Positions 25,651 through 59,140 of a stretch of DNA of 64,000 nucleotides are shown piece by piece. A model generated the notes under the pieces. The model ran no database searches, was not told where the DNA came from, and saw only the letters and a program-made list of their open reading frames with translations. The stretch is from assembly GCA_951406725.2 (NCBI GenBank), contig OX597818.1, forward strand, positions 133,176,001 to 133,240,000, read 5' to 3'. Position numbers and translations under genes: made by a program. How positions within the stretch are numbered: position 1 is the first letter of the stretch; the number at the start of each line of letters is the position of its first letter. The DNA comes from Octopus vulgaris (taxonomy: Eukaryota).

Positions 25651-26417
25651 AACAAGAAAAAATAATGACTGATATATAGCAAGAAAAATTGTGTGTATGT
25701 GAGAGAGACAGGCAGACAAACAGAAATAGAATGTATGTGTATGTGAGAGAGTGAGAGAGAGAGAGAGAGGGGGGAGAGAGAGATAATGTGTATAAAAAAA
25801 GAGAGAGATATAATGTGTATGAAAAAGAAAGAGAGAGAGGGGGGAGAGAGAAATAATGTGTATAAAAAAAGAGAGAGATATAATGTGTATGAAAAAGAGA
25901 GAGATAGAGAGAGAAAGAGATGGAGAGAGAAAGAGATGGAGAGAGGAAGTGAGAGAGAGGGAAAGAAATAGAGTATGCATCAAAGAAATATATAAAGAAG
26001 AACATAGTGTAAGAGCAGAAGAGAAGGAAAAATCAGTGAGAAATATGTATATTAAACGTATGTGAGAAAGATATAAAAAACGAATGAGAGGAACACAAAA
26101 AAAAGAGTATATACGTGCTTGTATGTGTGTGTGTACATGTAAGTCATATGCATGTTGTATGTATGTGTGAGTGTGTTTGCAGCTTCATAGATTCTCTATA
26201 AATCTGTCTATAGTTACCAGAAAAAGACAAAAAAAAGAATAGTATTACCTAAGAGCTGTATAACAAAACCTCACTAATGCAATCACAATGGGATTGACTA
26301 CAAGATATTACATGTAACCACTTGCTTGATAGATGCATATTAAAAAACGTGGCTTTTATATGGGGAAACCAAAATTTGTTTGAGGAGGAAAAAAAGCACA
26401 AAGATATTAACAAGAAA

Positions 26418-26930
26418 TCTATATATATAAAACTGTAGTTGTGTGAGTGTCTGTCCCCTTCGATTTAGATTCCTAACTACTCCCACATTTTGCGGTGCAG
26501 TTTAACCAAATTCGGGTATCTTATAGTCGTGATTCATATCGAGCCCGTCTGAGTATTAGCGCACGTCTACGATGAGTCTACGATTTTAAAAAATAATTTA
26601 ACATCATTTTTTATTCCATTTTAATGCATAATTTTTCGTGTGTCGATGGCGGCGGAGTTGGCGTCCATGGTCACACCTGCACCTGTTTGCTTCTCCCCTT
26701 CTTCCCTCCCTCGTGAAGCTGTGGGGAAGGGAGTGTAAGGAAATCAACGTCGTAAAGCGTTGTCAAGGAGACCAGCGTTCTTTTAGAACAACGACTTCAT
26801 GGCTTGAAGACACCAAAACAGAAATGGCTAAGAAAGCCCGAATTGGCATCTATAAGGGAAGAAACTCTCTAAAAATGCTTATATAGTTATTTCCCTTACA
26901 AACCCGAGCAACGCCGGGCGATACTGCTAG
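26418..26930 (+). mobile_element. Non-autonomous Helitron (513 bp)
   Basis: A|TC...cccgagcaacgccggg hairpin...CTAG|T, no TSD. Near-identical copy at 57925-58437. Confidence 0.88.
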
Positions 26931-28539: not shown

Positions 28540-29520
28540 GATCATTCCTTTCCGCAGTGGATGCTTAAGGAAAATCTGTCACGTGTTCTGGTCAAAGTAT
28601 CGAATGAGAAGCTGTATTACAAAGCTGTCTGTTATAATGTGGCCCTTGAACTAAAACGCTGCCAGCTCAGATTGCTAGCACACACAAACAGTTGGATAAA
28701 GTTCAGAAAACTGTTATCTCTGCTGGCAGCAAAGGACTTATCCCTCAGTATGAATGGCAGGTTGTATGATGCTTGCATGTGAAGTGCACTGTTGCATGAT
28801 AGTATAATATGGGCCCTGAATGCTAAGGATTTAAGAAAACAAAGGAAGAAATGTAGCTGACATGCTGTATAAGATGTGTAATGTTGGGACACGCAAACAC
28901 CAGAGTACATATGAGCTGAAAACAAGAGCTTGATATAAAAGGTCAGATATCTTTATATATAAAAGTAAGGTTGTGTGCTGTCTGTCTCCTACGATTTAGA
29001 TTCCTAACTACTCCAACATTTTGCGGTGCAGTTTAACCAAAACCGGGTATCTTATAGTCGTGATTCATATCAAGCACTTCTGGGTATTAGCGCGCGTCTA
29101 CAATGAGTCTATGATTTTAAAAATAATTTACCATCAATTTTTCCCATTTTTAATGCATTTTTGGCATATATAAGGGAAGTAACTCTCTAAAAATTTATTA
29201 TTAAATCTCAGAACGTAAAAAGCTACAGTAATACCCCCCCCCCCACTTTGTGGTTAGCCATATTGAGATGGCTATTATACTTTACATCTCTAAAAATGCT
29301 TATATAGTTATTTCCCTTACAAACCCAAGCAACGCTGGGCAATACTGCTAGTGGTTTATGAAAGACAAAACTATGGGTATGAGCAGGTGATACTTACAGA
29401 AGATAACTGTGAAGAGAAGTGTCAAAAGCTCAGTTAATAGAACCAGTGGAAGAGGGAGACCTATGATGACAAGGGATGAAGACTGATTTCAAGATGTTGA
29501 TTCTCATACTATATGTTAAA
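28540..29520 (+). mobile_element. Degenerate RTE LINE fragment, split by the Helitron at 28950-29351
   Basis: WIKFRKLLSLL..KDLSLSMNGRLYDACM, an RTE post-RT motif, with stops. Confidence 0.65.
28950..29351 (+). mobile_element. Non-autonomous Helitron variant (402 bp)
   Basis: A|TC...CTAG|T. Shares its 5' part and 3' end with the 513-bp family but has a different middle. Splits an RTE fragment. Confidence 0.85.
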
Positions 29521-41340: not shown

Positions 41341-42409
41341 ACTGCATTAATTTCTGATAATGCAGATGAAGGTTAACCTTTGAAATACAGTTTTTCATGT
41401 TATGTAAATGGGATTGCCATGTTTATACCAACATTTATCTCCAGCATAGATAAACAACTGCATTTAAGCCACAGTTTCATTCTCAATTAGATGCATTTGA
41501 TAGAAAATATTAAACATCCAGTAAATCATAGTCAACTTAGGGTTACACCCATAGAATTATAATCACAGGATTATAATTTTCTGGACCAGTTCTTTGCATA
41601 TTTACAATATTCATATCTAGACTACATTTTTGTAAGCTCAGTACCTGACTATGTTATATTTTAGATATATTTATAATAACAAACTTGTTTCAAATTAGAA
41701 ACTTTCATGGTAAGAGTTTCTGATTTCAACACAGTCTAAAGACTGAATTATGGTTATTTTTAAAATTATTTTGAAATATTGATTTATTGTCTGTCCACTT
41801 TGGTCATTCATATTGTACTAATAATATTGCATTTATTTATTTAACTATTTATTTATTTGAAAGGAAAAGCAGTAATTTCATCTATAATAATAAATGCCAA
41901 AACAAATTTGTGTGTATCAGTGTGTCACACTTTAACTTCCCCCCCTCTCTCAATATTCTTCAGGGTGAGGTGAGAGTAATAGTAGGCATAGAGATGGTGA
42001 GGGTGGTAATTGATGGTTGTGATGGTAATGGAGTTATAGTAATAGTATGAGCTGTAGTTGTGAGGGAGGTGGAGGTGACAGTGATGATGATGGTGGTGGT
42101 GGTGGTAGTAGCCAAGACAGTCAGGGATGAAGTTGATAGTAAGCGATGTGAAAGACAGTGGTGATGGTGGTGGAGGGGAAGGCAGCGAAGTCAAAGGTAT
42201 TGATGGTTGTGGTGTCAGAAGTCTGAATGGTGTGTGCATGGTAGTTGTAGTGGCGATGGTGGTGGTGGTGATGGTTGTAAACAATCAACAGAAAGAGAGA
42301 GAGAGAAAGAAAGAGGTTAGACAGAAAAGAAAATTGTACTGAACCCCAAATGGGAAGACAAAAAAATGTTGTTTATCATGCAGCTTTGCAGTCAAAAAAT
42401 TATATCATT

Positions 42410-42815
42410 AACGTATAGTGTACTCGCCATCTGAATGTGGCTAGCCACTGGGGGTGGGGTGTTACTGATACTTTTAGCCCCAGGCGATCAACGTCACCAG
42501 CTGACCTTAGACACAAAATTTCAGTGCCCTTGTGTTATTTGCAAAGGGAGGTCATTCTCCCTCGAAAACCTAAGTGATACATACGGACTATAGTTTCAAG
42601 GTAATTGCCTCTCGTCAACGCATGGTAAACACCGGTTTTCGATGAAGGAGACCCTCTGCAAATAATAATATTTAACGTTTTTCACAGCAACCACAGTCAC
42701 TGATTTAGAAAAACTGTCTGAAAGCATTAATAAATCTCTGAACGAGATATAAACAGTAACCGCTCGACAACGTATAGTGTACTAGCCATCTGAATGTGGC
42801 TAGACACTTATTAAT
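42410..42815 (-). mobile_element. Retrozyme-like non-autonomous retroelement (359-nt unit plus 40-nt terminal redundancy)
   Basis: Direct repeats 42410-42449 and 42769-42808 (38/40 identical). TSD aattatatcatt at 42398-42409 and 42816-42827. Internal hammerhead, nested inverted repeats, no ORF. Confidence 0.8.
42580..42624 (-). ncRNA. Type I hammerhead ribozyme (U3 variant)
   Basis: Minus strand: CAUGCG-UUGACGA-GAGG caauua CCUU-GAAAC uaua GUC|CGUAUG. 6-bp stem I, 4-bp stem II, minimal stem III with a palindromic loop. Predicted cut between 42586 and 42585. Confidence 0.8.
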
Positions 42816-43129
42816 AATTATATCATTGTTTTGATGAAAATTGTTCATTGCTTGAAAAATATCGGTCAAGTATAATAAAATTTAATATATGCTCAATGCA
42901 TGAAGTGTCATTGTTGGGCCCAAGGAGCTACCTTAAAAGCTACCCTATTGGATGGCTTTTAAGCTGGTAATTAATAGTAGCTGCAGAAATAACTGAATCC
43001 CCAAAAGGGTCAGCCGCTGATATGACTGCTTGGTAAAGTAATTATCTCTCATCATGTGGTCAATAAAATGTTTAGTGAATTAAAGCCAGTTTTAAATTGG
43101 TCAAAGGATAAAGAATATTTTTTTATCTA

Positions 43130-57519: not shown

Positions 57520-59140
57520 TCAAGTTTTGGGACAAGGCCAACAATTTTGGAGGAGGATAAGTTGATTACATCGACCCCAGTGCTCAACTGGTACTTATTT
57601 TATCAGCCTCAAAGGATAAAAGCCAAAGTTGACCTTGGTGGAATTTGAACTCAGAACTCAAAGACAGATGAAATGTTACTAAGTATTTTGCCAGTGTGGT
57701 AACAGAGCTGCCAGCTTGTCACCTTCATGAGTGCCTAAACATATACCACAAAACATGTTTTTGGAATGCTATAACAATTCTGCTAATCCACTGCTCTCAC
57801 TTTCTTCATAATAATTCTTTCTTCAATAAGAACAAGGCCTGAAATTTAAACACAGAATGTAAAGCTAGAAGAAATGCTGCTGAGCTTTTTGTTCAGTGTG
57901 CTAACGATCTGCCAGCTCACCATATCTATATATATAAAACTGTAGTTGTGTGAGAGTCTGTCTCCTCCGATTTAGATTCCTAACTACTCCCACATTTTGC
58001 GGTGCAGTTTAACCAAATTCGGGTATCTTATAGTCGTGATTCATATCGAGCCCGTCTGGGTATTAGCGCGCGTCTCCGATGAGCCTATGATTTAAAAAAT
58101 AATTTAACATCATTTTTTATTCCATTTTAATGCATAATTTTTCGTGTGTCGATGGCGGCGGAGTTGGCGTCCACGCTCACACCTGCACCTGTTTGCTTCT
58201 CCCCCTTCTTCCCTCCCTCGTGAAGCTGTGGGGAAGGGAGTGTAAAGAAATTAACGTCGTGAAGCGTTGTCAAGGAGACCAGCGTTCTTTTAGAACAACG
58301 ACTTCATGGCTTGAAGACACCAAAACAGAAATGGCTAAGAAAGCCCGAATTGGCATCTATAAGGGAAGTAACTCTCTAAAAATGCTTATATAGTTATTTC
58401 CCTTACAAATCCAAGCAACGCCGGGCGATACTGCTAGTTCTTAATAATTTTTTAAAATTTTGGCACAAAGCCAGCAATTTTAGAGGAGAGGGTCAGTCAA
58501 TTACATTGACCCCAGTACTTCACTGCTACTTTATTTTATCAATACTTAAATGGAACAAAGTCAAAACTGACCTCAGCAGAATTTGAACTCAGAATATAAA
58601 AGAGCTGAAAAATTAAATACCTATTTCTTTACTACCCACAAGGGGCTAAACACAGATAGGACAAACAAGAACAGACAAACTGATTAAGTCGATTATATCG
58701 ACCCCAATGCATAACTGGTACTTAATTTATCAACCCCGAAAGGATGAAAGGCAAAGTCGACCTCGGCGAGATTTGAACTCAGAACGTAACGGCAAACGAA
58801 ATACGGCTACGCATTTCGCCCGGCGTGCTAACGTTTCTGCCAGCTCACCGCCTTAAGAGCTGAAAAATTAAATACCACAAGGTATTTTACCAGATGTTTC
58901 AAGGTTTCTGCCAAAGATTAAAATAATAATTGTTTGTCATAGACATAAGTCCTAAAATGCAAGGAGGGGGTTAGTTGATTAAGTCAACCTCAGTCTTGGT
59001 TGGTATCATATTTTATTGACCCCCAGAGGAATCAAAGACAAAGTTGACCCCAAAAGAATTTGAACTCAGAATGTAAAGATCTAGAACAAATAATGCAAGG
59101 CCTTTTATCCAATGTGCTAATGATTCTGCTAATTCACTGC
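57520..59140 (-). mobile_element. Array of about five co-oriented SINE B-type copies, with a nested Helitron
   Basis: Repeated gaatttgaactcagaa and ggtacttattttat motifs. The young copy at 58622-58854 has a 22-bp TSD (58600-58621 and 58855-58876). Confidence 0.75.
57925..58437 (+). mobile_element. Non-autonomous Helitron (513 bp), same family as 26418
   Basis: A|TC...CTAG|T with subterminal hairpin; inserted in a SINE array. Confidence 0.88.

Follow-up and report, generated by a model that had tools for sequence, protein, structure and literature searches.

A non-LTR retrozyme family of Octopus vulgaris with Penelope-type insertion ends and chimeric junctions at predicted hammerhead cut sites

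The window, a 64,000 nt stretch of Octopus vulgaris DNA, contains an element whose sequence identifies it as a member of a non-LTR retrozyme family that numbers thousands of copies. The explanation that best fits the data, and that we hold with good confidence, is that it represents a 5'-truncated non-LTR retrozyme copy, reverse-transcribed and inserted in trans by the protein of an autonomous Penelope-like element (PLE). The class of element is already known and PLE mobilisation of retrozymes has already been proposed in print; the chimeras joined at predicted hammerhead cut sites are a new observation. With a PLE insertion signature that can be counted on a retrozyme, and with junctions at the exact predicted cut sites, the octopus family bears on how animal retrozymes move and on whether their hammerheads, and those of PLEs, cut in vivo.

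The window copy and its family

The insertion is flanked by a 12-bp AT-rich TSD, AATTATATCATT, present at positions 42398-42409 on the left and 42816-42827 on the right, as originally predicted. It starts with a 359-nt monomer at 42410-42768, for which the RNA sense is the minus strand. Unit positions u1-u359 correspond to 42410-42768 on the plus strand; the RNA reads from u359 to u1 and the predicted cut is between u177 and u176. A 5'-truncated start of a second unit follows at 42769-42808 (minus strand), recognized from a comparison of the repeats and from the spread of truncations in the family. This is the 40-nt terminal repeat of the original prediction, and the comparison with 42410-42449 confirms a spacing of 359 nt and an identity of 95% (38/40). 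Between the terminal repeat and the right TSD are 7 nt (TATTAAT) that the original prediction missed. The sequence at 42802-42815 is complementary to 42726-42739 at 12 of 14 positions and, read on the plus strand, is probably the remnant of a very short inverted second arm begun at the tail site described below. Similar inverted-arm remnants of about 14 and 17 nt are found in two other loci (L256 and L235). The window copy is probably a u1 arm of 399 nt plus an inverted tail-arm remnant of 8-14 nt before the right TSD. No reading frame of 120 aa or longer overlaps the element, which agrees with the earlier view that it has no ORF.

A search of the genome (2.8 Gb, 227 contigs) with the 430-bp query finds 2853 candidate places; 40 of these were scored, and full-length matches are 92-98% identical. 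The exact hammerhead pattern of the young type has 381 matches, a 19-mer of an older subfamily has 2119 and a 21-mer of the window copy's subfamily has 82, and the reversed-pattern controls for the exact-pattern counts give 0. Full units range in identity from 72 to 100%. Tandem dimers and trimers of the unit, which had been expected, are present in the genome. The family has no LTR, because one insertion end is variable. Plant LTR retrozymes carry a type III hammerhead in their LTRs and have a 4-bp TSD; unlike these, the octopus element has a type I motif, a TSD of 12 bp and no LTR.

The family resembles the metazoan non-LTR retrozymes, of which the mussel repeats are 350-390 bp, in the features described for them in PMC7229834. 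The unit is non-coding, within 150-450 bp and of low GC content (less than 50% in the metazoan elements), and it has a self-paired fold and a type I hammerhead of canonical size with a short palindromic stem III, the core here being a U3 variant. Copies are both dispersed and in tandem, from monomers to multimers, the TSDs are longer than 4 bp (7-14 bp in 22 of the 25 two-armed insertions outside (AT)n arrays) and PLEs coexist in the genome. In contrast to the elements of PMC7229834, the octopus core forms a series of U3·G8, U3-A8 and C3-G8, and the copies are mostly dispersed, truncated and inverted. Circles are reported for the retrozymes of that paper, whereas the octopus family is known here from genomic DNA. 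The original assignment to a multi-copy, non-coding type I hammerhead repeat with conserved structure, i.e., a non-LTR retrozyme, is supported by the copy counts and by covariation. The further term "viroid-like" holds for size and ribozyme and for nothing beyond that. A literature search, which lay outside subscription journals and repeat databases, found no description of this family in cephalopods, and a term search of the O. vulgaris repeat paper PMC13282606 finds neither "ribozyme" nor "retrozyme".

Contigs from 4 of 24 sequencing runs, presumed to be RNA, cover most of a genomic dimer; these contigs carry no strand, end or circle information. At L016:1088-1516, contigs of one run from another organism differ by clustered A>G and T>C changes, possibly because inverted copies underwent RNA editing or because the subfamily is a divergent one. 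Within the window, a non-autonomous repeat at 28946-29350 (minus strand), which by its end motifs we take to be Helentron/HINE-like, carries a 68-nt piece (29218-29285) with 73% similarity to u4-66 of the retrozyme. The same composite is also found in two other loci (L240 and L386), and other copies of this repeat within the window, at 26414-26929 and 57922-58436, are without the piece. The composite appears to be a retrozyme end that was captured and then amplified by another element.

Hammerhead motif and RNA secondary structure

The type I hammerhead that had been located on the minus strand at 42580-42624 is borne out by its stems, core and cut-site GUC. It consists of stem I (CAUGCG/CGUAUG), the core UUGACGA, stem II (GAGG/CCUU), GAAA and the palindromic ACUAUAGU, with the predicted cut following GUC between 42586 and 42585. 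Stem III (42587-42594, minus strand) has two pairs and lies inside this palindrome. Core position 3 is U, which gives a U3·G8 core, a departure from the consensus hammerhead, and there is also a G10.1·U11.1 pair. An Rfam search of the window element gives no hammerhead match, even at an E value of 10. U at core position 3 is a family-wide feature, present in 47 of 47 young segments, and not the result of decay in the window copy. The U3-A8 combination is a natural hammerhead variant known to be active (PMC3088659; PMC4209133); for U3·G8 hammerheads the literature search found no activity measurement.

Among 170 motif matches, a pattern-derived set that also took in a few non-family matches, the pair at positions 3 and 8 is U·G in 103, U-A in 35 and C-G in 24 (162 for these three), and C·A in 1. 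Stem III is palindromic in 154 of the 170 (CUAUAG 97, CUGCAG 38, CUAG 18 and CCGG 1). The hammerhead covaries across subfamilies, with U·G, U-A and C-G at position 3-8, and stem III switches from one palindrome to another while staying palindromic. The older subfamilies (L347-L360) have cores with C at position 4 (CCGACGA and CCGAAGA) alongside the canonical CUGAUGA. A distant subfamily (L079:15-180) has a stem III of CAUG, the same as that of the PLE-A hammerhead, and mixed dimers may form.

Secondary structure modeling of the 359-nt unit as a circle, a check that had been proposed, gives a minimum free energy of -103.4 (z -3.9), and 0 of 100 shuffles are as low. The linear fold is also better than 100 of 100 shuffles (z -3.3). 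The hammerhead is at the tip of a long imperfect hairpin (42535-42665, minus strand), and helices 3 and 4 display compensatory changes. In the circular fold, pairing probabilities are 0.6-1.0 for stems I and II and also for the blocks TCGAAAACC and TTATTTGCA. Three nested complementary blocks had been proposed; 42562-70/42634-42 and 42535-43/42657-65 pair at this level, but GTTACTG/CAGTAAC is weak, with a pairing probability of only about 0.24, and is missing from the family consensus fold. The monomeric stem III has a pairing probability of 0 in the circular fold, and the palindrome points to a dimeric hammerhead fold. A structure test with 25 of the 65 full units has 96% of its cells paired, with double changes in 15 of 61 pairs; the 74 double-change cells are reached by 0 of 500 shuffles and are far above slid controls, all of these figures being inflated by the relatedness of the units and by the derivation of most helices from the same alignment.

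Insertion ends and Penelope-like elements

Loci were segmented with a two-strand circular profile, and arms of at least 70 bits and adjacent arms of at least 35 bits were kept. The resulting 148 insertions were reduced to 145 by dropping two loci that were duplicates and one piece that lay within a different repeat; the sample consists of best matches and pattern matches, mostly from contig 1, and is biased relative to the whole family. These insertions have 219 outer ends, 108 of which are at u1 (u357-u6), 85 at u304-321 of the preceding unit (69 of these at u313-318) and 26 elsewhere, including three at u176-177. Two fixed start sites about 45 nt apart account for 193 of the 219 ends. In the window copy, position 42410 represents the first fixed reverse-transcription start site, and a Penelope-type tail of 42-47 nt (42722-42768, minus strand) ends at the second, u313-318 or about 42722-42727. 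The inner ends are scattered throughout the unit, with 9-23 in each 20-nt bin (n = 255). There is no accumulation of 5' ends at the cut site, 19 of the 255 being in u165-187 vs. about 16 expected.

The original model had a circular RNA entered at arbitrary points and copied for a little over one round, with permuted copies as the result. Arms of more than one unit are indeed common (17 of 76 insertions in the positional sample), but the circularly permuted start points that were predicted are not found; only the inner end varies, and 7 of the 26 outer ends off the fixed sites are within 26 nt of u1. The distribution of ends contradicts arbitrary entry, and we consider this model very improbable, although the contradiction concerns the entry points and not the circle itself. 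With a fixed start and a variable other end, the 1.1-mer is an ordinary 5'-truncated Penelope-type insertion. Its template was either circular or multimeric, and a 1.1-mer alone does not imply a circle.

Simple two-armed insertions (n = 60) combine the u1 site and the tail site in 49 cases; one is u1/u1, one is tail/tail and nine have one end unclassified. Before the removal of duplicates, 50 of 52 classifiable two-armed insertions use one of each site (binomial p 6e-13). Either arm can be the longer one (16 vs. 34, n = 50), and the arms were therefore separately templated; this rules out a fold-back origin of the inverted arms. The flanks of the start sites are 88-90% AT, and 79 of 194 are in (AT)n arrays.

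These properties are those of PLEs (PMC8557442, PMC11167929) and of non-autonomous Chlamys elements such as MRC1, which start at two sites, usually have the optional tail at a single end, insert into AT-rich and microsatellite targets, form inversions and have a hammerhead upstream of the start sites. The PLE architecture of a tail, partial tandems and an inverted 5'-truncated copy (PMC8557442) has its counterpart in the fixed 3' ends, optional tail, 5' truncation, partial tandems, adjacent inverted copy and AT-rich or microsatellite targets of a non-autonomous PLE, all of which are found in the retrozyme family. Unlike PLEs, the octopus retrozyme has no ORF and the whole element is one 359-nt repeat; the tail is therefore just the beginning of the next unit. 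For an anole PLE it was shown in vitro that both strands of AT-rich DNA are nicked and that reverse transcription starts from two internal sites that define the tail (PMC11167929).

The genome has at least three PLE families with intact frames of 746-781 aa that encode RT and GIY-YIG, i.e., PLE-A (781 aa), PLE-B (775 aa, in 4271-bp tandems) and PLE-C (about 765 aa). Two-armed pairs of PLE-C show the same tail/no-tail pairing in 6 of 6 scorable cases, with a tail of 35-42 nt. A comparison of the unit by blastn and nhmmer with 55 PLE-bearing stretches, including the ends of PLE-A, PLE-B and PLE-C, shows only independent retrozyme insertions and no pLTR similarity, for these three intact families and not for every PLE family of the genome. 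Very probably, the retrozyme family is mobilised in trans by a PLE protein, and the mobilisation in trans that was originally proposed for this multi-copy non-coding repeat is supported to that extent. The mobilising element would be an autonomous PLE. Young intact PLEs are present, and their proteins can be assayed on a 359-nt substrate.

Several candidate partners were rejected. The unit-like match by the PLE-B ORF (L151) was inserted separately, 600 bp beyond where the PLE ends, and the match in L079 is also a separate insertion. Two further sequences were considered as full-length partners and are segmental duplications: a 1.38-kb tandem array on contig 1 at 94.32 Mb (L041-L044), each unit of which contains a retrozyme copy truncated to u1-312 and fused to a LINE fragment, and the 3.58-kb repeat of L195. 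PLE-B is very young, with copies about 100% identical (L189, contig C1:27839500-27849499; L146). It has an extra upstream frame of about 430 aa, and a hammerhead pattern search of PLE-B found none. PLE-A has an upstream frame without a Pfam match and a U3-A8 hammerhead with ACAUGU. The hammerhead-like motif of PLE-C (L336, L337, L306-L335) has U3-A8, C at position 13 and an ACCGGU palindrome.

An ordinary repeat, i.e., a LINE-mobilised SINE, a MITE, a solo LTR or a satellite in which the hammerhead occurs by chance, is scarcely credible as an alternative. One fixed end with 5' truncation would also suit a LINE-type insertion, and the Rfam result is in keeping with a chance motif, but there is no poly(A) or simple-repeat tail, no terminal inverted repeat and no fixed second end. 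The dispersed copies, the two-site tail, the outward-facing 3' ends on both arms and the covariation of the ribozyme core also argue against it. PLEs were named as candidate mobilisers of retrozymes in 2020 (PMC7229834), and Li, Clavereau and Pollet (bioRxiv 10.64898/2026.07.22.740005) propose in 2026 that the non-LTR retrozymes represent non-autonomous PLE derivatives, a preprint that leaves the mechanism of mobilisation unresolved. Mobilisation of retrozymes by PLE machinery is the conclusion of both analyses. Theirs draws on co-occurrence and pLTR similarity, for the most part in vertebrates, and ours on the insertion signature and the chimeras, with no pLTR similarity. The results and discussion of PMC7229834 contain neither an insertion-end analysis nor cut-site chimeras.

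Cut-site chimeras and the RNA template

A search for hammerheads without a normal stem I downstream gives 21 matches. Thirteen end in TGT and are taken as CpG decay (two of these were checked), one is a mutated continuing copy, two are single joints, and five are ...CUAUAGUC|AAAAGAAC. The five represent three loci, C1 (in a tandem duplication), C5 (both arms) and C15, a small number of events. The sequence 3' of the joint is the 3' end of PLE-C (1586 matches). In native PLE-C, AAAAGAAC is preceded by a hammerhead-like motif ending in ...CCGGUA; the three chimeric loci read ...AGUC|AAAAGAAC vs. ...GGUA|AAAAGAAC in PLE-C. The C17 of the retrozyme is kept, the A17 of PLE-C is absent, and the joint is free of microhomology; in one of the C5 arms a single A is missing. 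By its position the joint falls at both predicted cut sites, the one after GUC in the retrozyme and the one in PLE-C, the latter being a prediction because the PLE-C motif is atypical (A13C and a short stem I). In its retrozyme part the chimera shares the U3·G8 core of the window copy. The C5 chimera differs from those of C1 and C15 in both parental variants, which suggests at least two events, and the 5' end of the C1 chimera also bears some 13 nt from the PLE-C 3' UTR in antisense orientation.

A further locus (L345) has a 337-nt piece that starts at u170, 6 nt past one cut site, and ends at the next GUC; this near unit-length monomer is fused in sense to a 5'-truncated LINE. Three others (L343, L344 and L346) end at or beside GUC and are ambiguous single cases. 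In L344 (C16:20775000-20781500), the retrozyme piece ending in GUC is directly before an apparent 5' UTR and the first frame of an L1/Tx1-type element. No reciprocal PLE-C/retrozyme chimera is present among 24 matches. A looser pattern gave no new chimera in 30 loci and 7 fetched ones (100 matches listed of 232 overlapping); these represent chance matches, continuing copies, one deletion and known loci. The literature search, outside subscription journals, found no report of cut-site chimeras, and a search for them in other genomes is a cheap in-silico test of ribozyme activity.

The chimeric junctions likely record cleavage in vivo that was followed by ligation or template jumping. Cleavage in vivo is itself probable. 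Ligation is favoured to a lesser degree over template jumping, and a circular template is slightly favoured. A similar design is known from the U6/LINE-1 chimeric pseudogenes, in which RtcB ligates an RNA with a presumed 2',3'-cyclic phosphate to the RNA of a retroelement, with no microhomology, and retrotransposition follows (PMC6789731). In the octopus chimeras, in contrast, the cyclic phosphate would come from a ribozyme, as would the 5'-OH partner at three loci, and the ligation is inferred.

In the cycle that we propose, tandem copies would be transcribed on the ribozyme strand, and two hammerheads, paired via the palindromic stem III, would cleave at GUC. The monomer would be closed into a circle by an RtcB-type ligase of the host or, rarely, joined to a different RNA that has a 5'-OH end. 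Both strands of AT-rich DNA would then be nicked about 7-14 bp apart by the PLE protein; one cDNA would start at u1 and a second some 45 nt from there, at the tail end, and both would stop at variable points and be joined head to head. We give about an even chance to the specific reading of the chimeras in which the retrozyme (U3·G8) and autonomous Penelope (U3-A8 with A13C) RNAs cut themselves and a host ligase then joined one to the other, the products having been copied back into DNA on two or more occasions as a germ-line fossil record. If true, the chimeras would directly show that the RNAs of animal retrozymes and of PLEs occupy a common compartment, that the ends needed for circularisation exist in vivo, and that a PLE dimer primes each strand of the target from a separate site on a circular template.

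A different template is possible, though it is less probable. PLE-driven insertion could proceed from an uncleaved linear multimer transcribed from tandem loci, with the ribozyme cutting occasionally and circles playing no part. Dimers and trimers are present in the genome, and 11 arms run across at least two intact cut sites, an observation that fits a circle or an uncleaved multimer equally. Variants private to one unit are shared between units of the same insertion in 9 cases vs. 150 unshared, and therefore nothing here favours a circle over a linear multimer. The anole PLE does not require hammerhead cleavage for insertion in vitro, and no RNA reads end at its cut site (PMC11167929). Cleavage by a U3·G8 core may be slow. 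For retrozyme dimers of Xenopus, no cleavage was seen in vitro in 8 of 9 cases (bioRxiv 10.64898/2026.07.22.740005). Against an uncleaved multimer is the compensatory evolution of the hammerhead and its palindrome in subfamilies down to about 72% identity, which implies selection on cleavage at the RNA stage. The chimeras and the near-monomer indicate that cut ends exist, and the retrozymes of coral, mussel and axolotl accumulate as circles (PMC7229834).

The chimeras may also have been formed by the reverse transcriptase, through jumping end to end between cleaved RNAs or switching in register between aligned hammerheads, although we find this origin less likely than ligation. Jumping could also build tandem units from linear monomers. 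Family copies do have internal jumps (L106 and L009, where the third unit differs at subfamily sites), the C1 chimera carries the antisense PLE-C segment, and the two hammerheads align weakly. However, the joint has no microhomology and retains C17 without A17, both C5 arms are chimeric, the similarly designed U6/L1 chimeras are products of ligation (PMC6789731), and jumping from end to end would still require that both ribozymes had cut.
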